Assembly: GCA_041653795.1 (NCBI GenBank)
Contig: JBAZER010000027.1
Location: 1 to 30,050, forward strand
Length of the DNA stretch: 30,050 nt
Direction: 5' to 3'
Source: Candidatus Omnitrophota bacterium
GTDB lineage: Bacteria; Omnitrophota; Omnitrophia; Omnitrophales; Aquincolibacteriaceae
Within the stretch, counting starts at the first letter, position 1; every line of letters starts with the position of its first letter. Positions 7,837 through 29,691 of the stretch are shown here, piece by piece. The position numbers and the translations under genes were made by a program. Below the pieces are notes generated by a model. It saw only the letters and a list, made by a program, of their open reading frames with translations, made no database searches and was not told where the DNA came from.

Positions 7837-8136
7837 CTACTTCCGGCGAACCCAGATACGAGCCCGATCGAGCTCATTGAGAATCCTGTCTTTTTTGACG
7901 ATGATTTTCTCCTGCCGTTTCTTGAGGAATGCCAAGCGGGTCTTGATGCTGCCGGGATCGCTTCCCAATAATCCTGGCCAAGGCTTCCCTTCGGCCGCGA
8001 AGATCTGAGGGGTCAAAAGAACCCCCTCCAACAGCCAGGACAAGAAATAGAGCTTAGGCCCTGCGAATCTCATCGCCTTCGACGACCTGCTGCTTGGGAT
8101 TTTCTTCCACAAGGGTGGCCGCAGAAAATTTATCAT
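7837..8136 (-). CDS. Hypothetical 99-aa protein with a basic C-terminus; overlaps the 3' end of the upstream coiled-coil gene by ~80 bp; uncertain
   Basis: ATG-initiated ORF ending 10 bp before aroA; no recognisable family; would otherwise be a 226-bp gap. Confidence 0.3.
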   Translation of the reverse strand: MINFLRPPLWKKIPSSRSSKAMRFAGPKLYFLSWLLEGVLLTPQIFAAEGKPWPGLLGSDPGSIKTRLAFLKKRQEKIIVKKDRILNELDRARIWVRRK

Positions 8137-9049
8137 AGAGCTTTTCGACCAGGACTGTCGCGATCTCCTGGCCCTGTTTGAGGACCTTCAGCCTGTCCCC
8201 CATTTTGAGTCCTTCTTGAAGTCCCTGATTGACGATCACAAAATTAAATTTTCGGTTCACGGTAAGAACTCTGGCGACTGTCGCCGTCCCGGCAGTTGAG
8301 GAAGCTTCGGAAGATTGCGAGAATTCAGTTGTTGCGGCGCCGGGGGTTTCCGGTGCCGGCGGCGCCGTGATCACGGATCCTCCCTTTGTGACAGGAACCA
8401 CTTTTGCAGTTTCCGCGCTGAAAGGCACCGAGGACGCGACTGGGGGGATGGATGTTGTCATGGAACTTGCGGAGGCAACCGATCTTCCGGAGGCCATGGG
8501 TTTAAAAACGGCCTGGGGAGTTCCGGCCTCATCTGCGGCCACTGTTGAAACGGATGGCACGGAGGCCGATGAGTTTGTAAAAGATTGGGCTGCGGAAAGA
8601 GGATTTGTATTCAGGTCCGCCGGAGTCACTCCACAGGCGGCTTGAGCTTCTTTGGCCTTTTTTTCAAGCTCACCCATCTTCTTCTGAAGTTCCGCGATCA
8701 TCTCTTGATGGCTCTTGAGCTGTTTTTCGAGCACGGCTTTCTCGGAATCAATACGGATTTGTTCGGCCTGAAGTTTTTCAAGCTGGGCCTGCATAGCCTC
8801 GGCCTTGGTACGATACTCTTCGCTCTTGGCCGTGATCTGGTCCTTCTCGGCCGTGATTTGTTCCTTCTCGGCCGCGATTTGTTCTTTCTCGGACTGGACT
8901 GTGATCATTTTTTCTTTGACCTGATCGTACTTGGCCTCGATGCTGCCCCGCACAGTACGTTCCTCGACCCAGCCTTGATACAAATAGTAAGAACCGCCTG
9001 CGGCAGCAATGGAAAGAAGAAATGCTAAAATAATGCCAAGCTTTCCCAT
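8054..9049 (-). CDS. Membrane-anchored coiled-coil protein: N-terminal TM helix, heptad repeats (EKEQIAAEKEQITAEKDQITAK), a Ser/Thr/Pro/Ala-rich linker and a ~75-aa C-terminal beta-rich domain (possibly OB/NfeD-like); function unknown
   Basis: Composition and periodicity seen in the translation; no confident family assignment. Confidence 0.55.
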   Translation of the reverse strand: MGKLGIILAFLLSIAAAGGSYYLYQGWVEERTVRGSIEAKYDQVKEKMITVQSEKEQIAAEKEQITAEKDQITAKSEEYRTKAEAMQAQLEKLQAEQIRIDSEKAVLEKQLKSHQEMIAELQKKMGELEKKAKEAQAACGVTPADLNTNPLSAAQSFTNSSASVPSVSTVAADEAGTPQAVFKPMASGRSVASASSMTTSIPPVASSVPFSAETAKVVPVTKGGSVITAPPAPETPGAATTEFSQSSEASSTAGTATVARVLTVNRKFNFVIVNQGLQEGLKMGDRLKVLKQGQEIATVLVEKLYDKFSAATLVEENPKQQVVEGDEIRRA

Positions 9050-9250: not shown

Positions 9251-9505
9251 CTAAGAAAGGTGCTTGCTGACGAGTTTGGTCATCTCGAACATATTGACGA
9301 CCGACTTGCCGCCGAACACAACCTTGAGCGAGGCATCCGCATTGATGTTACGCTTGTTCGCCTGATCCTGGAGCTTGTTCTTCTTGATATATTCCCAAAG
9401 CTTCTTCACGACTTCGCTGCGAGGCATCGGGCCCTTGCCGACCACTACCGCAAGTTCCTCGCTTACACCCATAGGTTTCATAAACGCTGCGTTCGCTTTC
9501 GCCAT
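9251..9505 (-). CDS. Stand-alone SWIB/MDM2-domain protein (84 aa)
   Basis: Good fit to the SWIB consensus (PRSEVVKKLWEYIKKNKLQD..NKR.I..D..L..VFG...V.MFEM.KLVSKHL); RBS AAGGAG sits 8 nt upstream. Confidence 0.8.
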   Translation of the reverse strand: MAKANAAFMKPMGVSEELAVVVGKGPMPRSEVVKKLWEYIKKNKLQDQANKRNINADASLKVVFGGKSVVNMFEMTKLVSKHLS

Positions 9506-10280: not shown

Positions 10281-11546
10281 TTATTGAAGTTCCGGATAAA
10301 GCGGAAACCTTTGAGTCAGGGCTTCAACGCGTGAAAGGACTCTCGCGAGATTCGCTTCTTCCGCGGGAGCCTTGAGCGTTTCATCGATGAGTTCGGCAAT
10401 GAGGTCCATCTCCTTTTCTTTCATCCCGCGCGTTGTCACGGCAGGCGTTCCCAATCGGACTCCGGATCCCTTGAAAGGAGATTCTTTGTCGAACGGAATC
10501 ATGTTTTTGTTCACCGTGATCTTCACTTTATCCAGAAGCTCCTGGACCTGTTTTCCGTTAAAACCTTTCACCGTCACGTCCACGAGCATAAGATGATTAT
10601 CCGTGCCGCCGGAGACGATCCTCCAGCCGCGCGCGGCCATCGCGCCCGCAAGTGTCTTGGCATTCTTCACGATCTGGGCGCTGTATTCTTTGAACTCGGG
10701 ACTCAATGCCTCCTTCAACGCCACTGCCTTGGCCGCAATCACGTGCATCAGCGGCCCGCCCTGGATGCCCGGAAACACGGCGGAATCGATTGCTTTCGCG
10801 TATTTCTCTTTGCAAAGAATCAGGCCCGCGCGAGGACCGCGAAGCGTTTTGTGTGTTGTCGTGGTCACAACATCCGCATAGGGCACGGGACTCGGGTGAT
10901 GCCCCGTGGCCACAAGACCCGCGAAATGCGCCATATCCACCATCAGAAGCGCCCCGACCTGGTCGGCGATCTTTCGTCCCCGCGCAAAATCAATGATCCG
11001 CGGGTATGCCGACGCGCCCAAAAGAATCATTTTGGGCTTATGCTCATTGGCCAATTGCTCCAAGGCGTCATAATCGATTTGTTCGTCCTTCGGACTGACG
11101 CCATACGGGATGATCGTATAGAATTTCCCGGAGTAATTCATTTTATGACCATGCGACAAATGGCCGCCATGCGTCAAATCCATCCCCAGGATCTTGTCCC
11201 CCGGTTCCAGCAGCGCCATGAAAACGGCAATGTTGGCCGAGGTTCCGCTGTGGGGCTGGACATTCGCGTGTTCGGCCCCGAAAAGCTGCTTCGCGCGATC
11301 GATCGCAAGCTGTTCGACCACATCCACGTTTTCGCAGCCGCCGTACCAGCGCTTCGCCGGATACCCTTCGGCGTATTTATTCGTCAAGACCGAACCCATC
11401 GCCTCAAGCACGGAAAGCGATGTGAAGTTCTCGCTTGCGATCAGCTCGATATTCTCGTTCTGCCGGCGGGCTTCCGCCCGGATGGCATTATAAATATCCG
11501 GATCAGTCTTCTTAAGCTGCGTTTGATCGATGATGCTTTTTTTCAT
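10281..11546 (-). CDS. glyA: Serine hydroxymethyltransferase. The real start is the internal [13 protein letters not shown]...; the ORF as listed (to 11657) is N-extended
   Basis: SHMT motifs (LIASENFTS..., PLP-lysine region [11 protein letters not shown]); ~421 aa from the internal Met; overlaps rpiB by 35 bp. Confidence 0.9.
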
Positions 11547-11982
11547 AAGCCCTAATTTTGTTAACACGGACCTCATGTCGTCCCCTTTCAAATGGTGTGT
11601 TGAGCCAGGTGTCCACGAGCGGAAAAATAATATCCTGCGGTAAAAACCCCGCGCCAAGGATCAGCATATTGGAATCATTATGACCCCGGGAAAGACGCGC
11701 TTGTTCGATATTTTGACAAAGCGCCGCGCGAACGCCGTCGACCTTGTTGGCCGCGATCGTGCTCCCGATCCCGGTGTAGCAGATCCCGATCGCCCGGTGG
11801 CATTCTTTGCTGGCCACTTTTTCAGCCGCGGCAAAAATAAAATCCGGATAGTCACAAGACTCGCTGGAAAAAGCGCCGCAGTCAACCACCTCGATATTCT
11901 TGTTCTTGAGAAAATCGATCAGCGTGTTCTTCAGTTGAATGCCACGGTGATCCGTCGCGATCGCGATCTTGGGTTTTATCAT
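11512..11982 (-). CDS. rpiB: Ribose-5-phosphate isomerase B (RpiB/LacAB family)
   Basis: [15 protein letters not shown]...[11 protein letters not shown]...[12 protein letters not shown], typical of RpiB; 156 aa. Confidence 0.85.
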
Positions 11983-11993
11983 AATTTCCGCCT

Positions 11994-13067
11994 TTAAGGT
12001 TGATCCAGCTGGAGAATCTTGTTCATATATTGTTTTATTTTCGATTCGATATCAAGCAAGGTCTTCTCGTAAACCTGCATGTCCATCCCGATGGGGTCCT
12101 CTACATTCAGCGTGATCGTCTTTTCCTTCACCGAAGGCAGCATGGCCGCCACGTCCTCCGCATGCTGTGCGAACATCGCGAGAACCAGATCTGAGCTCCA
12201 GAGGTCCCCTTTCCGGCAACGCCGGCTGCGAAACCCGCTGATGTCGATCTCGCGATTGCGCAGCACCAGCTCCGCCTCGGGCGTGCACGGAAGCCCGTCC
12301 CGCGCGCTCGTCCCGCAAGAAATGACTTCGATCTCGGAGGACAATCCCCTTCTTTCAATCTCGTGTTTGAGCCACCCTTCCGCCATCGGTGAGCGGCAGG
12401 AATTTCCCGTACAAACGATCAGGATGCGCTTGCTCGGGCATTTCCGGGATCGGATCTTTTCGATAGCCTTCTCCACATCCGCGCCTTGCGCCCCTTTGCG
12501 AAGAATCACCGGAATCTCTCCCGTGAGATCCATGACCGTCGAATCGTGCATCAACTCCGTCTTACCGCCATCGATCAGTTGATCGAAAGCGCCCTGCAAT
12601 TGTTCAACCACTTGGTGCGCTGTATGAGGCGAAGGTTTCCCGCTCCTGTTAGCGCTGGTTGCGATGAGCGGCTCCCCGACCTCCTGGATCAAGGCAAGCG
12701 CGATCTTGTTCCTCGGATATCTGATCCCGATCTTATGACCGGCAAGATCGGAGACGATCAACGTTACCGGTCCCGGCCAAAATTGCCGGGCCATCGTGCG
12801 AACGAGCGGTGTTTTTCTGACCTTGAGCGCATCGAGCATTACCCAGTCGCCTATGTGATAGGTAAAAGGTTTTGCGTCCGAACGCCTTTTGATCTCGCGA
12901 AGCCTCTTTTCAATCTCCGGGGCGCTCATCTTCCCGCCTATCCCATAAACTGTTTCCGTGGGAAATGCAATGATTTTGCCCTCTTTACAGGCATTCGCCG
13001 CTTCCCGGATAAGTGTCATATCCGGATCATAGCTGTCAATCTTGATCACTCCAGGCGTTACCATCAT
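11994..13067 (-). CDS. Fusion protein. The N-terminal ~205 aa are an L-threonylcarbamoyladenylate synthase (YrdC/TsaC) domain. The C-terminal ~150 aa are a low-molecular-weight protein phosphatase domain (CX5R P-loop CTGNSCRS plus a DP general-acid motif)
   Basis: YrdC motifs (FPTETVYGIGG, ATSANRSGKPS) followed by the LMW-PTP/YwlE-like signature (ILIVCTGNSCRSPMAE ... VEDPIG). Confidence 0.8.
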   Translation of the reverse strand: MMVTPGVIKIDSYDPDMTLIREAANACKEGKIIAFPTETVYGIGGKMSAPEIEKRLREIKRRSDAKPFTYHIGDWVMLDALKVRKTPLVRTMARQFWPGPVTLIVSDLAGHKIGIRYPRNKIALALIQEVGEPLIATSANRSGKPSPHTAHQVVEQLQGAFDQLIDGGKTELMHDSTVMDLTGEIPVILRKGAQGADVEKAIEKIRSRKCPSKRILIVCTGNSCRSPMAEGWLKHEIERRGLSSEIEVISCGTSARDGLPCTPEAELVLRNREIDISGFRSRRCRKGDLWSSDLVLAMFAQHAEDVAAMLPSVKEKTITLNVEDPIGMDMQVYEKTLLDIESKIKQYMNKILQLDQP

Positions 13068-13122: not shown

Positions 13123-14406
13123 CTAGGCAGCGTTAGACTTTTCTTTGCTATCCTTTTTCAACAAAGCTTTCAGCTTTTCCAGGTCCATGCCGCTTTCCTG
13201 AAGGAACTGATGCATGTTCGCGCCGCCCTGGGCGTCCAGATTGATCCCAAAGAACTTTTGCGCATTTTCACCGGAAAGGATCCACTTGATATCGGCCTTT
13301 TGAACAGCTTGAGCCAAGGCCTGATACTTGCCAAGTAAAACCTCTTTCTGGACATCCAGCATTTTTACGTTCAGCGCGACATCATTGAATTCTTTTAAAG
13401 CGGCGGCAAGCTTTGATGTCCCGGCCGCATCTGCTTCTTTTTTGACCCTGATAATATCCGCTTCGGCTTTTCCGACGGTTTGGATCTGGTTGGATTGCCC
13501 TTCCGCTTCAAGCGTGAATTTCAATTTTTGAGCCATGGCAAGTTGTTCGATCTTCTGTTTTTCGATTTCGGCTTTTCCGACCTCTAGTTTCCGTAAAGCC
13601 TCGATACGCTGGCTATTGGCTTCCACCTCTCTCAATGCGATATCCTGGTTCTTGGACTGTTCCGAGATGCCGATTTGTTTATCCTTTTCGATCTGTCTTT
13701 TCCGGTAAGTTTCCTCTGCTTCGGCTTTGGCAAGCTCCGCCTCTTTAGTCGTGGTTGCGACCCGGATATCCGCGTCGCGGCGTATCTCGGCCGCGACCTT
13801 TCTTTCGATATCCTGGATGATCGTACTCCCCGGCGCATCCTTGATGTCCTTCAATTCGAGGTCCACAAGTTCGATCCCCCACTTGGGGAAAACCTGTTCG
13901 ACTTCTTTGGTGATCGCCTGATCCAGAAGCGAACGGTTCATATAAATATCCAGGATCGTTTGTTTGGTGGTAACCGTGCGACCGACGCTTTCCATAATGG
14001 CCCGCAGATCTTCCGACAACTTCATAAAATCAAAACCCATCTCCGCGGACGTGTCGGTCAGGATCAATCTTTCAACGGCCAGATTGATATTTTTGATATT
14101 GATGAAGCACATCAGATCGCAAACAAACTTGGCCATATCCCTGTCATTCAGTTTGATATCATTGACGGGAATCGCCAGATTGCAGAGAGGGAGTTTGTGC
14201 AGTTTTGTGATGAACGGGATGACCCAATAGGCGCTTTTGCCTTCCCGGGAGGAAAAGATTGTTTTTGAATTTTGGAGGATCCGGATATGGGTCTCATTCA
14301 CGGGAACCACACGGTAGAGCCCGAACATACCGCCTAAAATGTGCCGAAGCAGAAAAAGCACGGGCAATGCGGCGGTAACAATTATTATCAAAATCATCGG
14401 ATTCAT
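13123..14406 (-). CDS. Flotillin-like SPFH/band-7 protein (FloT/YuaG-like): N-terminal membrane hairpin, SPFH domain, long EA-rich coiled-coil C-terminus
   Basis: 427 aa with SPFH architecture and the flotillin-type KAEAE/QKIEQ repeat region; no nfeD partner adjacent. Confidence 0.75.
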   Translation of the reverse strand: MNPMILIIIVTAALPVLFLLRHILGGMFGLYRVVPVNETHIRILQNSKTIFSSREGKSAYWVIPFITKLHKLPLCNLAIPVNDIKLNDRDMAKFVCDLMCFINIKNINLAVERLILTDTSAEMGFDFMKLSEDLRAIMESVGRTVTTKQTILDIYMNRSLLDQAITKEVEQVFPKWGIELVDLELKDIKDAPGSTIIQDIERKVAAEIRRDADIRVATTTKEAELAKAEAEETYRKRQIEKDKQIGISEQSKNQDIALREVEANSQRIEALRKLEVGKAEIEKQKIEQLAMAQKLKFTLEAEGQSNQIQTVGKAEADIIRVKKEADAAGTSKLAAALKEFNDVALNVKMLDVQKEVLLGKYQALAQAVQKADIKWILSGENAQKFFGINLDAQGGANMHQFLQESGMDLEKLKALLKKDSKEKSNAA

Positions 14407-25035: not shown

Positions 25036-25113
25036 TGGTAGCGCTAACGGGATTTAAACCCGTGTTTCTGCCTTGAGAGGGCAGCGTCCTAGATCAGGCT
25101 AGACGATAGCGCC
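25036..25113 (-). tRNA. tRNA-Glu, anticodon CUC, CCA encoded. The T-loop is unusual (TTTAAAT) and the D-loop has no GG
   Basis: Reverse complement GGCGCTATCGTCTAGCCTGATCTAGGACGCTGCCCTCTCAAGGCAGAAACACGGGTTTAAATCCCGTTAGCGCTACCA. 7-bp acceptor, Glu-like D-arm (TCGTCTAG...AGGAC), anticodon stem CTGCC/GGCAG with loop CTCTCAA. Confidence 0.7.
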
Positions 25114-25363
25114 CTGATGTATCCAATTTATTTTCCCACATGGCTACATTAGGGCTGCACTGATTTCTCGATTCTTTTCTCAATAGAAAATCAGGCGCCC
25201 TGATGGACCTATTCAATCAGGCGCCATACAAACACGGGGCCTGTCAGAAACTAACCAACGATTGAAAACTGATTACGCCCTGATGGATCCAATTCATTTT
25301 TCCAATGGCTCCATTAGGGCTGCATTGATTTCCCGATTCATTTCTATATGGAAAATCAAGCGG
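25109..25363. repeat. Two tandem ~88-bp units (25109-25197 and 25275-25363, ~85% identical) directly upstream of tRNA-Glu. Each has hairpin 1 GCCCTGATGKA...TMCATTAGGGC and hairpin 2 YTGATTTCYC...RGAAAATCAR. A diverged middle segment also starts CGCCCTGATGG
   Basis: Read directly. Three compensatory base-pair changes between the two copies; G-U wobbles appear only in the plus-strand RNA sense. Confidence 0.6.
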
Positions 25364-25390
25364 GGGGATTGAAAATCCTTCAAACAAGTC

Positions 25391-25434
25391 CAGTCCCAAT
25401 TCTTTTCAATTTCAAAAAATCTGAAATTGGGGCA
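25391..25434. promoter_or_regulatory. Second copy of the nested dyad: CAGTCCCAAT-tcttt-TCAATTTCA-aaaaatc-TGAAATTG-GGGCA. Lies upstream of the tRNA-Glu/purB transcription unit
   Basis: Same outer and inner arms as 18830-18875, but a different loop sequence and length. Confidence 0.4.
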
Positions 25435-25566
25435 GCCCTCGTCACCATTCAAAAAACAAAGACAAGGGCAGTATAGCTTTGCCCCTATAGGATGTCAACG
25501 GAACTAGTCCCGGTCACCTTAAATTCAGCAAAAGTCGGGGCGATCGAACGACGCGGAAAGACAATA

Positions 25567-25845
25567 CTAGAACTTTCGATCAACCTTGTCCTTCAGGTCG
25601 TACACGGACTTCTCAAGCATTTTCACACGCTCGGACATGAACCGATTTGCCTGCTCCAGATCCGCGACGCGCCGTTCAAGTCTGTCCGCACGGTCCTGCC
25701 TGAGAGTCTTCTCCATATCGGCGAATTCCGTCGAAGTTCCACTCATCCCCGTCCCCGCCGCTTCGTCCTCGACCGCCCACGAAAGTGAGAATACGATCGA
25801 AAAAAACAGCACCCCTAAAATTGAAATTGCTGCGAGTTTTTTCAT
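25567..25845 (-). CDS. Small secreted coiled-coil protein (signal peptide MKKLAAISILGVLFFSIVFSLSWA, then about 65 aa of heptad repeats); Lpp-like in size but has no lipobox Cys
   Basis: Read from the translation; internal start chosen at MKKLAAIS. Confidence 0.45.
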   Translation of the reverse strand: MKKLAAISILGVLFFSIVFSLSWAVEDEAAGTGMSGTSTEFADMEKTLRQDRADRLERRVADLEQANRFMSERVKMLEKSVYDLKDKVDRKF

Positions 25846-25963
25846 AGGAGTCACCTCGAGCGGAGTATATCATAATTATAAAAGACGGGGAACGCAAAAC
25901 GGGAAACGCTGAACGCCAACGCTTTTTCGTTACCCGTTAACCGTTCCCCGAGCCCCGAGGCGT

Positions 25964-26887
25964 TTAGCCTCGAGGATGGAATTTCGCGTGAACGGACTTG
26001 AGGCGGTTTCCGGAAACATGCGTATAGATCTGTGTCGTGGAGATATCGGAATGACCGAGGAGCTCCTGCACGACGCGCAGGTCCGCGCCGCGTTCCAGCA
26101 GGTGCGTCGCAAAAGAATGGCGAAACGTGTGGGGTGTGATTGTTTTGGTGATGCCGGCAAGCCGCGCGTATTTTTTGATCATCTGCCATACAAATTGACG
26201 CGTCAGCCCCTTCCCGCTCCTGCCCAGAAAAAAATGATCCGTCCTGGTCTTCAATTTTGAACGGAACCTGGCAAGATAAGTCTGGCAAGCGGAGACCGCA
26301 ACACTTCCGAGCGGCACGAGCCGCTCCTTGTCACCCTTGCCGCGGCACTTGATGAACTTGTTATCCAGATACACATGCTCCGCCGTGAGCTCCGTGATCT
26401 CGGAGACCCGCATCCCGGTCGCGTAAAGGCATTCCAGAAGCGCCAGGTCGCGTATTCCCCCGGGCTTTTTGACGTCCGGCATCTTGAGAAGAGAGTCCAT
26501 CTCCTGTGCGGTCAAAAAGTGCGGCAGCTTTTTCCAGAGCTTCGGCGACTCAAGGACGCTTGTGATATCGCTTGGAACATAGCGTTCTTTGGCGAGAAAA
26601 CGGTGGAAAAGCTTGACCGAGACAAGCCCGCGTGCGATCGAGGAAGATTCGAGTCCGCGCCTGCTTTCCGCATTCAGGAATTTCAGGATGTGCGTCCGCG
26701 AGACCTTGCTCCAGTCCGAGACCTTTTCTTTTTTGAGGAATACGTCGTAGCGCACAAGGTCCTGCCGGTAAGCGTCGAGCGTGTTCTGCGCCAGTCCTTT
26801 TTCCACGGAGAGATAATTCAGGAACTCTTCAAAGAGGGACTGGTTCTTGTCCCTGGGTTTTTCCGGAGTCACCGCTGTTGTATCCAT
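25964..26887 (-). CDS. xerD: Tyrosine site-specific recombinase of the XerC/XerD type (most XerD-like)
   Basis: 307 aa; conserved R..H..R..Y catalytic C-terminus ...LLGHSDISTTQIYTHV...; the N-terminal core-binding domain aligns along its length with XerD. Confidence 0.8.
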   Translation of the reverse strand: MDTTAVTPEKPRDKNQSLFEEFLNYLSVEKGLAQNTLDAYRQDLVRYDVFLKKEKVSDWSKVSRTHILKFLNAESRRGLESSSIARGLVSVKLFHRFLAKERYVPSDITSVLESPKLWKKLPHFLTAQEMDSLLKMPDVKKPGGIRDLALLECLYATGMRVSEITELTAEHVYLDNKFIKCRGKGDKERLVPLGSVAVSACQTYLARFRSKLKTRTDHFFLGRSGKGLTRQFVWQMIKKYARLAGITKTITPHTFRHSFATHLLERGADLRVVQELLGHSDISTTQIYTHVSGNRLKSVHAKFHPRG

Positions 26888-27123
26888 CGCTTCTGGTATC
26901 GGCTAAACAACCCCAGGACTAGAGACTAAGAACCAAGAGCCTATCCTGATAACAATGTTGCGTCATTGCGAGGAACCTGCGAAGCAGGGACCGTGGCAAT
27001 CTCGTTTTTTTCGTTCTTGTAGAAAAAGATCGCTACGCCCTCTTCTCCGCCAAAGGACGGATTCGTCCGACGCCTTGTGGCGAAGGGGCCCGCGATGACA
27101 AATTGAAATCTGGAGAACTTAAA

Positions 27124-27223
27124 ATGCGTTGCTCCAGTTATTCCCTCCTGTAGGGCACATTTAAATGTGCCCTACGGAAGAGAGGATAGAGCAAATATCT
27201 CTCAGGAAACCGGAACAATGCAT
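27124..27223 (+). mobile_element. MITE copy 3 (100 bp, 1 mismatch to copy 1), TSD TTAAA (27119-27123 and 27224-27228). Sits between xerD and the flavoprotein gene
   Basis: Same TIRs and palindrome; flanked by a 5-bp direct repeat. Confidence 0.65.
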
Positions 27224-27232
27224 TTAAAGTTT

Positions 27233-27964
27233 CTACTTCTTGTCCGCAAGCTCCTGAAGAGTTTTTCTGAAATAGGCCTCGGCGCCCCGAATGTACTGCT
27301 CTTCCGGGATGAGGGGTTTTTCGAGCTCTTCCTGAAGCTGGCTGGAAATCCGGCCGGTTTTCACGACCTCCTCGCCGGCCCTGCGAAGCAGTTCTTTGTA
27401 ATGACGGACCGGAAGCCAGGACCAGAAAGATTTCTTGGACAGAATGGTCCCGCCGCCGCGATAGATTTCGGCAACGAGCTCCGTATTCATGTTCCGTGCA
27501 ATTCTCCGGAAAAGAAGCTTCAGGACCTGGAAGTGGCTCTGTTCCGGGAAACCGCAGTTCGAGATCACCGCGATCTTGGGAATCTTTGCAAGATCGACCC
27601 TGTGCCGGCACTCTCCGCCCGTATCTTTCTCAAAATAGGGCTCGGCCGTCGGGATCATACGATCCATAAAATTCTTCATAATACCCGTCACGTTATCCAC
27701 ATAAAGAGGCGTGGCAAAAACGACAAGATCGGAACTTCCCAGTTTGGGGAGCAGCTCCGCCATGTCATCCTGAATGGCACACTTGCCGGGCGTTTTAAGC
27801 CAGCAGGCATAGCACCCAGTGCAGGAATGGATCTTCTTGTGCGCGAGAAAAACGTTTTCGGTTTCCGCGCCGGCCCCGCGCGCCCCTTCAAGGAACGCCT
27901 GGACCATTACGTCCGTGTTCCCTCTTTCCGCCTGCGGACTCCCGTTAAATACTGTGATCTTCAT
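27233..27964 (-). CDS. Iron-sulfur flavoprotein (Isf) / NADPH-dependent FMN reductase-like flavodoxin-fold protein with a CX2CX2CX7C cluster motif
   Basis: MKITVFNGSP flavodoxin-like start; HSCTGCYACWLKTPGKC cysteine motif typical of the Isf family; start set at the internal Met. Confidence 0.7.
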   Translation of the reverse strand: MKITVFNGSPQAERGNTDVMVQAFLEGARGAGAETENVFLAHKKIHSCTGCYACWLKTPGKCAIQDDMAELLPKLGSSDLVVFATPLYVDNVTGIMKNFMDRMIPTAEPYFEKDTGGECRHRVDLAKIPKIAVISNCGFPEQSHFQVLKLLFRRIARNMNTELVAEIYRGGGTILSKKSFWSWLPVRHYKELLRRAGEEVVKTGRISSQLQEELEKPLIPEEQYIRGAEAYFRKTLQELADKK

Positions 27965-28208
27965 AAGCATTTTTTCCCTCGCCTTGTCCGGCTTTTTGCA
28001 CAACCTGCGTCGGATTCTCTTTATTCGCTTCGTCAGAGTCCGTCAGCTTCTTCGCCGCCCGCCGTGCCGTGACAGCTCTCCTCGCGGCCCTTATCCCCAT
28101 AATGGCATCACTGGACGGTACGTCTACCACAAACATTGCCGTCATAACCCCCAACAAAACCACCTCCAGCATTCTTCTCATTCTCTTACCTCCATTACTT
28201 TTTTTTAT

Positions 28209-28375
28209 CTATTCTTCTACAATTACCGCGAAGCCTTTTTCCACCAACTGTTGATTGACATAAACCCCGTTCACAAACACGTCAGCCAGGTAGCGGTCGT
28301 ACTTGCACTCGCGCCCTAATGTCCCGAGTACTACCCGGCGAGTTTTGGACAACTCGTCCTGGGTTGTCCGACTTG
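28209..28375 (-). pseudogene. Truncated duplicate of the 3' end of the neighbouring nuclease gene (encodes ...KYDRYLADVFVNGVYVNQQLVEKGFAVIVEE*). It has no start codon and lacks a ~75-bp segment present in the intact gene
   Basis: Translating the minus strand gives 31 aa nearly identical to the C-terminus of the 28390..29691 product; DNA blocks CCCGAGTACT and GGCGAGTTTTGGACAACTCG are repeated. Confidence 0.5.
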
Positions 28376-28389
28376 TTGCTGGCTCCAGA

Positions 28390-29691
28390 TTATTCCGCTA
28401 CTTTGACAGCGTAGCCTTCATCGAGCAGTTTTTGGTTCACGTACACACTGCTCACAAAAACATCCGCCAAGTAGCGGTCGTATTTATCTGACTTCACGGT
28501 TTTGATGAGGATCGGCGAATTTTTTCCAAGCATCTTCTCAAGCGCCTTCTTCGCTCCCATGCCGTCCGCCGTCGCGATCTCAGGCGCGTCAATTCCGCGC
28601 AGGCGAAGCTTTTGGACTGTCCGGAACCCGAAACCGAGATCCACAACAGCCTTGATCGTGTCGCCATCAATGACTTCGAGGACTTTGATTTCATAAGTAT
28701 ACCCGGGCTCAGTAGCCCGAGTACTGCCCGTCTCGACTTTTGCCTTCTCTTTATAAATGGCAGTCGGGACGGCCCCAATCTCCGCTGCGCTACGATTGAT
28801 AGGTATTGAGACCGGCGAGTTTTGGACAACTCGCCCGGGGCTGTAAAGCTCTAGGGAATATTTCCCATTTGGGTCTTGAGAGGAGGTGACGACATCCCCT
28901 TCTTTGAAGGCCTTTGTGTCGGCCACGACTTCTGACAGTCGAAGGTAATTCGAGAACCCAAGATCGAGGACTCGCTCACTTTCTTCAGTACCGCAGACTA
29001 CGCGGTACGTGTGCGGAATGCCGGGTTTGGCCGTGAGTTTGGCTTCTTTTTTTGGGACTTGCATCCCATTTCTTGCGGCTTTGCGCTTTCTTACTTCGGC
29101 ACGAACTTGATCCTGCGTCCAGTTCTCCTTCGCTGCTTTTTCTTCCAGCTCGGCACGTTCATCAGGGTCATTCACGGAAAGGAGTGTTTCATAGTTGGCC
29201 CAGCTTAATTTTCCGGGCGCCCGGAAATTCGGGTAAGTGCGGGCGAACTGAAGCATGTAGTAGAGCTCGGTATCACTCATACCCAGATCTTTGGATAATC
29301 TTAAGATCACCTGTTTGCCGTAATCGGCGCGCTCTTTGTGCTGAAGCACATGCGCATCAATGAGTCTGCCGATCTCCCAGGCCTCACGCACGCGTTCCTG
29401 TTCCACGGCCTTCTCGACACGGGCACGGCTCTCAGTCCGCGCCCCGCGAATCGCAGTAAGTAATTGATCATAAGTTCCAACTTTGGTCGCGGACACTGTA
29501 GACGATTGCCCCAAATCGTCACTGCGTCGTGCCTGTTCACCGCGTTTTTCAGCGGTCCCTGTGGGATTGCGAACAGGCGAAGTTTGAACCTGCGCCGCAA
29601 ACCCCAAGGAAACACACTGGAAGAATAGAAGGAAGGAAATAACTGCAAGCCTAGCCACATCACGAATCAACATAGGTCTATAACCTTTCAA
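28390..29691 (-). CDS. Secreted or membrane-anchored two-domain nuclease. It has an N-terminal hydrophobic signal/anchor, a YhcG_N (DUF1016)-like domain (LSWANYETLL..NDPDER...ENWTQDQV) and a C-terminal staphylococcal/thermonuclease (SNase) domain (VIDGDTIKAV...LRLRGIDAPE...DKYDRYLADV)
   Basis: Motif-level matches to the N-terminal domain of the YhcG family and to the SNase catalytic region; 433 aa. Confidence 0.7.
   Translation of the reverse strand: MKGYRPMLIRDVARLAVISFLLFFQCVSLGFAAQVQTSPVRNPTGTAEKRGEQARRSDDLGQSSTVSATKVGTYDQLLTAIRGARTESRARVEKAVEQERVREAWEIGRLIDAHVLQHKERADYGKQVILRLSKDLGMSDTELYYMLQFARTYPNFRAPGKLSWANYETLLSVNDPDERAELEEKAAKENWTQDQVRAEVRKRKAARNGMQVPKKEAKLTAKPGIPHTYRVVCGTEESERVLDLGFSNYLRLSEVVADTKAFKEGDVVTSSQDPNGKYSLELYSPGRVVQNSPVSIPINRSAAEIGAVPTAIYKEKAKVETGSTRATEPGYTYEIKVLEVIDGDTIKAVVDLGFGFRTVQKLRLRGIDAPEIATADGMGAKKALEKMLGKNSPILIKTVKSDKYDRYLADVFVSSVYVNQKLLDEGYAVKVAE

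Follow-up and report, generated by a model that had tools for sequence, protein, structure and literature searches.

A TsaC/Sua5-family domain fused to a YwlE-like phosphatase domain in Omnitrophota and Planctomycetota

The window analyzed here (the whole 30,050-nt stretch of a Candidatus Omnitrophota contig) contains a gene in which a TsaC-type YrdC domain is followed by a linker and by a YwlE-like domain of the low-molecular-weight protein phosphatase (LMWPc) family. Judging from its sequence, we consider it probable that the product is a bifunctional protein, i.e. a threonylcarbamoyl-AMP (TC-AMP) synthase joined to a YwlE-family phosphatase with phosphoarginine as the predicted substrate. 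Such a housekeeping protein would have arisen through a merger of the adjacent genes sua5 (ywlC) and ywlE together with loss of the SUA5 domain. The features of the gene are the following:

11994..13067, minus strand: complete fusion gene (ORF list, Pfam and NCBIfam scans, identical gene on an independent assembly, AF2 model)
12492..12992, minus strand: YrdC/TsaC catalytic domain, aa 26–192 (PF01300, TIGR00057, alignment to Pa-Sua5 6f87)
12426..12491, minus strand: inter-domain linker, aa 193–214 (alignments, DSSP on the model, no PF03481 match)
12024..12425, minus strand: LMWPc phosphatase domain, YwlE-like, aa 215–348 (PF01451, PDB sequence matches, Foldseek)
12390..12413, minus strand: P-loop CTGNSCRS, aa 219–226, read from the sequence, with the nucleophile Cys219, the phosphate-binding Arg225, Ser223 at position 5, and Ser226
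12093..12098, minus strand: general-acid DP motif, Asp324-Pro325 (alignments to YwlE and 4egs), followed by the non-aromatic Ile326

The first-pass annotation had described two genes that are separate in Bacillus-type genomes as a single 357-aa ORF here, and our analysis bears this out. The ORF starts with ATG, a GGAGG motif lies 11–12 nt 5' of it, and neither a stop nor a frameshift occurs between the YrdC and LMWPc domains anywhere in 11994..13067. A second, independent assembly from ENA (L081) has a gene call for an identical 357-aa product, with unchanged neighbors. The HMM scan proposed in that annotation identified both Sua5_yciO_yrdC (PF01300, aa 26–192: E-value 1.1e-45, 155.8 bits, cut-off 25.1) and LMWPc (PF01451, aa 215–348: E-value 2.3e-27, 96.4 bits, cut-off 23.2), and both Pfam domains are present in all 120 homolog clusters listed (52–91% identity). 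The AF2 model of the protein has a pLDDT of 94 and a pTM of 0.87. The fusion is thereby confirmed as one genuine, conserved gene of 357 residues; that two genes were joined by an assembly or sequencing artefact has practically no chance of being true, as this is ruled out by the independent assembly, by more than 120 clusters and by 23 uninterrupted loci from different projects. The strand of the ORF (minus) had not been given in the first-pass annotation.

The local gene order is purE-SPFH-[fusion]-rpiB-glyA-nrdR, and the two genes immediately downstream are:

11512..11982, minus strand: rpiB, 11 nt downstream of the fusion (Pfam, NCBIfam, tblastn synteny)
10281..11546, minus strand: glyA, serine hydroxymethyltransferase (Pfam SHMT E-value 1e-169, gene call on L081, synteny)

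The true start of glyA is likely an internal ATG, which gives 421 aa as called on the L081 contig. The proposed ywlC-ywlE-rpiB-glyA context was also confirmed, since Bacillota loci carry the same genes as separate ORFs. Omnitrophota and Planctomycetota contributed 23 genome loci, in all of which the compact fusion is one continuous ORF and tblastn synteny places rpiB next downstream; the order purD-purE-[fusion]-rpiB-glyA-nrdR is common to several of them.

A survey of the phylogenetic spread, which had been suggested together with the domain scan, revealed two recurrent architectures of the fusion, distributed over several phyla. We collected 124 representatives of compact-fusion length, which align end to end and have at most 50% mutual identity. 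The compact form is common in Omnitrophota and Planctomycetota, and Bacillota also possess three-domain YrdC-SUA5-LMWPc fusions (e.g. L056 from Candidatus Fermentithermobacillus carboniphilus, P0159 and P0183). The order of the two enzymes within the polypeptide is unchanged in the latter, and rpiB again lies downstream, but unlike the compact form they keep the SUA5 domain, every Sua5-specific residue and a Thr-type P-loop; they may represent an intermediate state or an independent fusion. A neighbor-joining tree of the N-terminal domain, made to ask whether the compact fusion arose once or repeatedly, is crude, with long branches and midpoint rooting, and places the compact fusions in 3–4 groups among Sua5.

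The N-terminal half had been read as a YrdC/TsaC domain, and the PF01300 match as well as a TIGR00057 score of 152.1 bits (cut-off 123.2) agree with this; Foldseek matches the model to Sua5/TsaC2 structures. The KxR/SxN tetrad, which we used as a family filter following PMC10321239, is present as K60, R62, S138 and N140, and is intact in 116 of the 124 compact-fusion representatives. By its sequence the domain looks like a member of the TsaC/Sua5 family (L-threonylcarbamoyladenylate synthase) with a putatively catalytic active site. The signature of the TsaC subtype (Thr or Ser138 in E. coli numbering, before S-x-N) is present as Thr137, and the residues of the Sua5 subtype (Pro143, Pro59 and Asn62, Pa numbering) are replaced by Thr137, Ser63 and Lys66, respectively. 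The protein is not a single-domain TsaC of ~190 aa, having 357 aa and a second domain, and its score with the model of type 1 TsaC, NF007919, is 56.9 bits (cut-off 175).

The closest relatives of the N-terminal domain are members of Sua5/TsaC2 (E-value 1.6e-36), such as B. subtilis YwlC, P. abyssi Sua5 (6f87) and T. maritima TsaC2 (9dsq), with which it shares the fold, the KxR/SxN tetrad, His71 (Pa-His67), a KPSPT motif partly kept as KPSPH, and a place in the operon that precedes ywlE and rpiB. It differs from them in lacking the SUA5 domain and the Sua5 linker, instead of which there is a phosphatase domain, and in the replacements Pro143->Thr137, Asn62->Lys66, GVE->MHD and Asp161->Gln. TsaC (E. 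coli YrdC, 1hru) resembles the fusion in having a YrdC domain without SUA5 and Thr preceding S-x-N, and Lys at the Asn62 position is found in several TsaCs, but the overall similarity to E. coli YrdC is much lower (E-value 3e-13) and the fusion is a multi-domain protein. The N-terminal domain appears to be derived from a Sua5-type ancestor.

As first noted, the C-terminal domain of Sua5 is missing: Pfam reports no Sua5_C (PF03481) match in the fusion protein, and the same scan detects this domain in the three-domain relatives. The linker occupies the position where Sua5 has a loop of ~20 residues and the SUA5 domain; it comprises a helix (aa 195–207, DSSP on the model) followed by the conserved Pro211 and Lys213. 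Motifs of the SUA5 interface are retained by canonical Sua5 and by the three-domain fusions, and are eroded in most compact fusions. According to a published model, loss of SUA5 triggers TsaC-like adaptation (PMC10321239), and the eroded interface motifs together with the Thr and Lys signature residues fit that model; the N-terminal domain would have drifted toward a TsaC-like active site, with Thr137 and with Lys66 replacing the Sua5 Asn.

The C-terminal half had been annotated as a phosphatase with a CTGNSCRS P-loop and a DP motif, and we located both, at aa 219–226 and aa 324–325. The features of the LMW-PTP/ArsC superfamily are all there, namely a C-X5-R-(S/T) P-loop, a DP acid and a four-stranded Rossmann-like fold. 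The domain is closest to YwlE-type enzymes, both by sequence (best PDB matches: 4egs, E-value 7e-23, and YwlE, 7e-15) and by fold (Foldseek TMt 0.88 to 4egs and 0.84–0.87 to YwlE, with 0.80–0.88 across LMW-PTP structures). Compared with YwlE from B. subtilis (4kk3) and G. stearothermophilus (4pic) and with the T. tengcongensis ortholog (4egs), it superimposes with TMt 0.84–0.88 and an rmsd of 1.4–1.8 Å and shares the C-X5-R-S P-loop, the DP acid, the DLVLAM strand and a gene context beside sua5 and rpiB. Unlike YwlE, it has Ser rather than Thr at position 5 of the P-loop and is covalently joined to TsaC, its motif is DPI (DPF in YwlE, DPY in 4egs) and its D-loop is ~10 residues shorter; given the Ile after DP and the shortened D-loop, the active-site pocket may differ from that of YwlE. 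Alignment confirms the catalytic Cys and Arg, which are invariant in 78 aligned sequences and in all 124 compact-fusion representatives, while the Asp is conserved in 123 of the 124. The phosphatase half thus looks putatively catalytic, and with Cys219, Arg225 and Asp324 in place it is predicted to work as a cysteine phosphatase, belonging to the YwlE branch within the LMW-PTP fold. The first-pass annotation overlooked that CTGNSCRS is the exact P-loop of thioredoxin-type ArsC. Two extra cysteines, C251 and C284, which we considered as an alternative redox pair, are restricted to the window's own sub-clade, where they are conserved, and are absent from other compact fusions.

Thr at position 5 of the P-loop is the published phosphoarginine determinant (PMC7772506), and Ser223 would place a hydroxyl at this position, which steers YwlE and DARP toward phosphoarginine. 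The suggestion that Ser here resembles the Thr of arginine phosphatases is supported by the compact family, in which an alternation of Thr (65 members) with Ser (50) speaks for equivalence of the two; hydrophobic residues occur in 9 members, so that 115 of the 124 sequences (93%) have Thr or Ser. Among the 120 close homolog clusters listed, 108 have Ser, and A, V, I and T occur in 3 each; Thr is found in all 18 three-domain fusions and in all 13 stand-alone ywlE genes from Bacillota. The close orthologs with Ala, Val or Ile indicate that the position is not strictly constrained, and the literature searched yielded no experimental test of a Ser variant at position 5 of a YwlE-type enzyme (PMC7772506). 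Because of the hydroxyl of Ser223 at the specificity position, we predict that the substrate class is most likely N-phosphorylated arginine in proteins, rather than phosphotyrosine or arsenate.

Genes for the arginine kinase (McsB/McsA) are absent from the 30-kb window. At one Planctomycetota fusion locus (L016), McsA-like and McsB-like genes are located ~2 kb downstream, the McsB-like gene scoring 383.2 against the NF002194 cut-off of 385; such linkage occurs in only 1 of the 23 compact-fusion loci. A search with the Planctomycetota McsB as a probe returned matches that all have at least 81% identity, the named ones all from Planctomycetota, where McsB is abundant. McsB has also been reported in Chlamydia (PMC11708050).

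An improbable alternative is that the C-terminal domain is a conventional phosphotyrosine LMW-PTP, which opposes a bacterial tyrosine kinase and was fused to TsaC only through gene adjacency. It accords with an LMWPc domain with a full set of catalytic residues, with the few orthologs that have the pTyr-typical Ile, Val or Leu at position 5, and with weak NCBIfam matches to the Wzb and Etp models, but these models (NF007520 and NF008486) give 39–42 bits against cut-offs of 243–247. In classical LMW-PTPs (Wzb, PtpA, YfkJ) position 5 is a hydrophobic Ile or Leu, and DP is followed by aromatic residues lining the pTyr pocket, whereas the fusion has Ser223 and D324-P325-Ile326; the prevalence of Thr or Ser in the compact family, the YwlE-type character of the closest solved structures and the absence of BY-kinase and polysaccharide-export genes from the 30-kb window also argue against this reading.

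The domain could instead act on a small molecule, such as free phosphoarginine, an rpiB-linked acyl or sugar phosphate, or a by-product of TC-AMP, to which we give little credence. This would agree with rpiB adjoining the fusion in 23/23 compact loci, with the altered pocket (shortened D-loop, non-aromatic residue after DP), and with the lack of an arginine kinase among the genes of the 30-kb Omnitrophota window. However, such a role is not known for any enzyme of the YwlE branch, genuine YwlE genes of Bacillota are linked to rpiB just as strongly, and TsaC chemistry (ATP -> TC-AMP + PPi) is not known to yield a phosphomonoester substrate.

That the phosphatase domain is a catalytically irrelevant structural stand-in for the lost SUA5 strikes us as very improbable, since the compact family shows hardly any variation at the catalytic Cys, Arg and Asp, and most of its members have eroded motifs at the SUA5 interface. 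The two domains do share the C-terminal position in the chain and a Rossmann-like character, and some Bacillota relatives have degenerate LMWPc domains: by sequence, L064 combines a live Sua5 with loss of the LMWPc nucleophile Cys, and the P-loop is missing from L035 and L037. The Foldseek alignment of the model spans the entire Sua5, but with an rmsd of ~18 Å and TMq 0.52, and therefore placement of the phosphatase domain at the site of SUA5 is not supported.

A thioredoxin-coupled arsenate reductase of the pI258 ArsC type is scarcely credible and was rejected, in spite of CTGNSCRSxMAEGW reproducing 13 of 14 residues of the P-loop and helix start of S. aureus pI258 ArsC and a TMt of 0.86 to ArsC 1lk0: only the Cys10 equivalent is present, Cys82 and Cys89 are replaced by Phe and Val so that no redox relay is possible, TIGR02691 (47.8 bits, cut-off 174.3) and NF010053 (59.1, cut-off 215) remain far below their thresholds, the overall sequence is nearer to YwlE and 4egs, and no ars genes are found near the fusion in the 30-kb window.

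In the bifunctional protein that we favor, the YrdC domain would convert threonine, bicarbonate/CO2 and ATP into L-threonylcarbamoyl-AMP, a reaction with which synthesis of t6A37, a universal tRNA modification, begins. The fusion guarantees 1:1 co-production of the two domains, and the confident single-body model suggests that they form a fixed physical pair. A plausible purpose would be to clear phosphoarginine, which marks proteins for degradation, from the t6A machinery (TsaC itself or, as in B. subtilis, its partner TsaD), and translation fidelity would thereby be coupled to proteostasis. In B. subtilis, the t6A enzyme TsaD has reportedly a stability that is under the control of YwlE and McsB (PMC7546277). 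The functional link between t6A modification and the phosphatase, proposed in the first-pass annotation, is strengthened by this report and by the two architectures recurring across phyla, which fall short of proof; the fusion suggests a link between tRNA modification and the control of protein phosphorylation.

YrdC is known as a module of other multi-domain proteins, including HypF, TobZ, TsaN (TsaD-TsaC-SUA5-TcdA, 8ide) and the Mycoplasma TsaC/HemK fusion. In HypF, TobZ and TsaN the partner domain uses up the adenylate made by YrdC, whereas a phosphatase has no evident role of this kind. The Mycoplasma protein, which is likewise joined to an operon neighbor, provides a precedent (PMC4615747), and by analogy fusion of operon neighbors can be selectively neutral. 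We also considered, as a tentative and rather unlikely possibility, an obligate physical module of TsaC/Sua5 and the phosphatase that goes beyond an operon pair, in which YrdC would recruit the phosphatase or gate it allosterically, and the phosphatase would shield the t6A machinery from phosphoarginine-tagged degradation. Recruitment or gating could then involve sensing of ATP, threonine or TC-AMP by YrdC, or its docking on TsaD or tRNA. The two architectures, together with variants that by sequence have a dead TsaC domain and a live phosphatase (L078 and L080 from Pirellulales, and P0095) and with the dead-phosphatase variant L064, hint at a non-catalytic role of each domain for the other.

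TsaC/Sua5 is among the few truly universal enzyme families, and family-wide surveys treat its members as strictly binary, either TsaC or Sua5 (PMC10321239, PMC4615747). The full-text literature that we searched, subscription-only papers being outside its scope, contains no mention of a fusion of TsaC/Sua5 with a phosphatase. TsaC-LMWPc is a third, abundant architecture of this family, alongside a Sua5-LMWPc form. The current database label, "threonylcarbamoyl-AMP synthase", ignores the phosphatase half, and as the fusions have a Sua5-like length and many of them keep the Pro signature, a classification by length could place them in the wrong bin. Recurrence of the fusion provides "Rosetta-stone" evidence tying t6A synthesis to YwlE-type (phosphoarginine) phosphatases, a tie so far based on one study of TsaD stability in B. 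subtilis. The single polypeptide is well suited to asking whether the two activities communicate, and the Thr, Ser and Ile variants that occur naturally at its specificity-determining residue offer a built-in mutational series. If the obligate module were true, control of arginine phosphorylation would be firmly wired into translation fidelity in PVC bacteria as well as in Bacillota. The fusion extends likely phosphoarginine signaling from Gram-positives to Planctomycetota and perhaps to Omnitrophota.

The TsaC (YrdC)-LMWPc fusion is an uninterrupted ORF with an ATG start in our ORF list, and a GGAGG motif can be read in the sequence 11-12 nt upstream of that ATG. The first-pass annotation had described one ORF with a YrdC domain, a low-molecular-weight phosphatase domain and no Sua5 C-terminal domain; the HMM scan matched the first two, and the Pfam scan found no Sua5_C domain in the window protein. 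The features of the gene and of its upstream neighbour are:

11994-13067, minus strand: fusion ORF, 357 aa
aa 26-192 of the fusion: Sua5_yciO_yrdC domain (Pfam E=1.1e-45)
aa 215-348 of the fusion: LMWPc domain (Pfam E=2.3e-27)
aa 219-226 of the fusion: P-loop CTGNSCRS
aa 324-325 of the fusion: DP motif
13123-14406, minus strand: SPFH/Band-7 (flotillin-like) gene between purE and the fusion

The fusion is a real gene. An independent ENA metagenome contig encodes an identical 357-aa product as one gene call with unchanged neighbours, and both Pfam domains are present in 120/120 of the best homologue clusters (52-91% identity, length ~350-357 aa), the majority of which are labelled Candidatus Omnitrophota. 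No frameshift or stop separates the domains in the window ORF or in the compact loci (YrdC and LMWPc without SUA5), at least 23 of which were found in a scan of species-representative genomes, with both domains in one frame. When 1.84 billion cluster representatives were searched exhaustively, 521 proteins had E<1e-30; of the best 150, 124 match the compact fusion in length and align over their whole extent, and another 18 are 490-632 aa long. The phylogenetic survey that had been proposed places the compact form in 6 Omnitrophota, 16 Planctomycetota (Planctomycetales, Pirellulales, Phycisphaerae and Sedimentisphaerales) and one bin labelled Anaerolineales among the matches listed, with one example in Fidelibacterota too, and single-ORF YrdC-Sua5_C-LMWPc proteins in Bacillota (loci L018, L056 and L064; representative proteins P0159, P0183 and P0212). 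The searches also returned an unusual kinase-like, multi-phosphatase architecture in a 1679-aa protein from an Elusimicrobiota MAG (P0195), with a PEP-utilizers mobile domain, PPDK_N (pyruvate phosphate dikinase-like), a PTS_IIB-like stretch and five tandem LMWPc domains; its cluster mate P0270 has 3117 aa.

The window as a whole forms one block of housekeeping genes in the same direction, from rodA, pbp2, mreDCB and aroA through to the pur genes, and the minus-strand neighbours run purF, purM, purD, purE, SPFH/Band-7 gene, fusion, rpiB (11 nt downstream of the fusion), glyA, nrdR and a SWIB-domain gene. The order purD-purE-[fusion]-rpiB-glyA-nrdR is common to Omnitrophota and some Planctomycetales, and rpiB is next downstream in every compact locus listed. 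Bacillota loci have sua5, ywlE and rpiB as separate genes, with glyA also found in several, which is the classical arrangement of Bacillus-type genomes. In L001, the closest genome locus among the matches listed (58% identity), purE directly abuts the fusion, which suggests that the SPFH gene of the window was inserted in one lineage into an otherwise conserved gene order.

Several other features of this region deserve mention. As listed, the glyA ORF (10281-11657, minus strand) begins at a TTG and extends into the 3' end of rpiB; on the independent contig an internal ATG is called, giving 421 aa. In L001 (7080-7531) rpiB is split over two frames, probably by an assembly frameshift. The stand-alone 84-aa SWIB/MDM2-domain gene adjoining nrdR (9251-9505, minus strand) is kept in L001; bacterial SWIB proteins are uncommon beyond the Chlamydiae/PVC group. 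In a 331-aa protein (8054-9049, minus strand) the N-terminal half is a long coiled coil and the middle is rich in Ser, Ala, Thr and Pro; its only Pfam matches are weak ones to coiled-coil families. In the stretch 25036-29691, tRNA-Glu (25036-25113) is accompanied by genes for a tyrosine recombinase of the XerC/D type (25964-26887), for an FMN reductase (27233-28003) and for a nuclease-like protein with DUF1016_N and SNase (28390-29691), possibly a small integrated element next to the tRNA.

The window protein scores 152 bits against TIGR00057 (L-threonylcarbamoyladenylate synthase; NCBIfam cut-off 123), and among solved structures its N-domain is closest in sequence to Sua5/TsaC2 (6f87, E=1.6e-36), with a weaker match to E. 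coli TsaC (3e-13). We compared it with Sua5 by the criteria of Pichard-Kostuch et al. 2023 (PMC10321239), namely the KxR/SxN tetrad, the signature position (Pro143 in Sua5, Thr138 in TsaC), the Sua5-specific Pro59, Asn62 and His67, and the SUA5-interface motifs KPSPT, GVE, His157 and Asp161.

Pa-Sua5 features and their state in the window protein
KxR/SxN tetrad: intact (K60, R62, S138, N140)
Pro143 signature: Thr137, TsaC-type
Pro59: Ser63
Asn62: Lys66, like several TsaCs
His67: His71, kept
KPSPT: KPSPH, mostly kept
GVE: MHD
Asp161: Gln156

The full Sua5 pattern is kept in all canonical Sua5 proteins of the retrieved loci, in the three-domain L018, L056 and L064, and, at the positions checked, in nearly all of the 18 longer representatives. 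In the 124 compact fusions, Lys occupies the Asn62 position in 100, the signature position is mixed (P 54, T 49, S 17) and the SUA5-interface motifs are eroded, a pattern that matches the published model of TsaC-like change in a Sua5 losing its SUA5 domain (PMC10321239).

The nearest solved relative of the C-domain is the T. tengcongensis YwlE orthologue (4egs, E=7e-23), followed by B. subtilis and Geobacillus YwlE (E about 1e-14), with ArsC and tyrosine phosphatases scoring lower; when the C-domain of the AlphaFold model is superposed on 4egs or YwlE, TMt is 0.84-0.88 and rmsd is 1.4-1.8 A. Alignment identified the catalytic Cys219 and Arg225, which together with Asp324-Pro325 are invariant across 78 close homologues (124/124, 124/124 and 123/124, respectively, in the diverse representatives). 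In YwlE and Drosophila DARP, P-loop position 5 decides whether phosphoarginine or phosphotyrosine is preferred (PMC7772506).

Residues at P-loop position 5
Window protein: Ser
Best 120 close homologues: S 108; A 3, V 3, I 3, T 3
Compact family (124): T 65, S 50, I/L/M 9
Three-domain representatives: Thr 18/18
Stand-alone Bacillota ywlE adjoining sua5, with recognisable P-loop: Thr 13/13

By these counts a hydroxyl residue is the family norm, with Ser and Thr replacing each other, which supports the earlier view that the Ser is closer to Thr than to Ile. Compact fusions differ from YwlE in having DPI rather than DPF or DPY, and a D-loop shorter by ~10 residues. The octapeptide CTGNSCRS is identical to that of S. 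aureus pI258 ArsC (13/14 residues identical through MAEGW); arsenate reduction by the known relay is ruled out, as ArsC Cys82/Cys89 align to Phe/Val in the fusion. The ArsC, Wzb and Etp models all score far under their NCBIfam cut-offs on the window protein. Cys251 (nt ~12315-12317), in an S-x-G loop beside the P-loop, and Cys284 (nt ~12216-12218) are near-invariant in the window's own sub-clade and replaced by Ala and Leu/Val in other compact fusions, a possible clade-specific redox feature.

The AlphaFold model of the window protein (pLDDT 94, pTM 0.87) and the conserved linker residues Pro211 and Lys213 suggest a fixed domain pairing. The phosphatase does not take the SUA5 position: in a Foldseek alignment over whole Sua5 the N-domains superpose and the phosphatase is placed elsewhere (rmsd about 18 A, TMq 0.52).

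No arginine kinase gene was found within the 30-kb window. On a Planctomycetota contig with a Thr-type fusion (L016), the fusion is followed by rpiB and then by genes for a cytidylyltransferase-like protein, PTPS, an McsA-like protein with a UVR motif and an ATP:guanidino phosphotransferase:

L016 5629-7271, plus strand: McsA-like and McsB-like genes, ~2 kb downstream of fusion-rpiB on the same strand

The phosphotransferase is 39.5% identical to a B. subtilis McsB probe, and its NF002194 score of 383.2 bits is practically level with the cut-off of 385; its homologues at >=81% identity are abundant, the named ones being from Planctomycetota or Sedimentisphaerales. The remaining 22 compact loci listed showed no McsA/McsB linkage. 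Chlamydia is a member of the PVC group. McsAB is retained there (PMC11708050), and together these observations make arginine phosphorylation plausible in lineages with Thr-type fusions.

A functional link between t6A synthesis and the phosphatase, as argued in the first-pass annotation, has an experimental counterpart: B. subtilis TsaD is arginine-phosphorylated at Arg282, and its ClpCP-dependent stability is controlled by YwlE and McsB (PMC7546277). Comparative support comes from the recurrence of the fusion across phyla in two architectures and from reciprocal retentions. The TsaC tetrad is eroded beside an intact phosphatase in 8/124 representatives, and it appears lost in P0095 and in the Pirellulales loci L078 and L080 (for these two loci on low-identity alignments, to be read with caution), where the phosphatase residues are likewise intact; in P0095, L078 and L080 the TsaC half may thus have become a pseudo-domain that persists as the partner of a working phosphatase. 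P0095 comes from Omnitrophota, shares 57% identity with the fusion ORF of the window and carries a P-loop of the Ile type (CTGNICRS). Conversely, L064 (Candidatus Ruminococcus intestinipullorum, ORF from ~6001) combines an intact Sua5 with a degenerate LMWPc, in which the P-loop reads SDSDTCRG and the nucleophile Cys is thus lost, and Lachnospiraceae loci L035 and L037 have separate LMWPc-like ORFs adjoining sua5 in which no P-loop can be recognised; all three look like pseudo-phosphatases kept beside Sua5. From such retentions, as hints, we infer that each domain may have a non-catalytic role for its partner.

The original observation is thereby confirmed, and its interpretation is supported. 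The fusion is probably a bifunctional TC-AMP synthase and YwlE-family phosphatase, and would have arisen by fusion of ancestral neighbour genes with loss of SUA5; phosphoarginine specificity of the C-domain is the leading sub-hypothesis, about evenly balanced. The TsaC/Sua5 family has been treated as binary (PMC10321239; Thiaville et al. 2014, PMC4615747); neither paper mentions a phosphatase fusion, and no mention was found in the searchable literature. The compact fusion is a new architectural arrangement of known families, found widely in databases, where its name takes no account of the phosphatase half.
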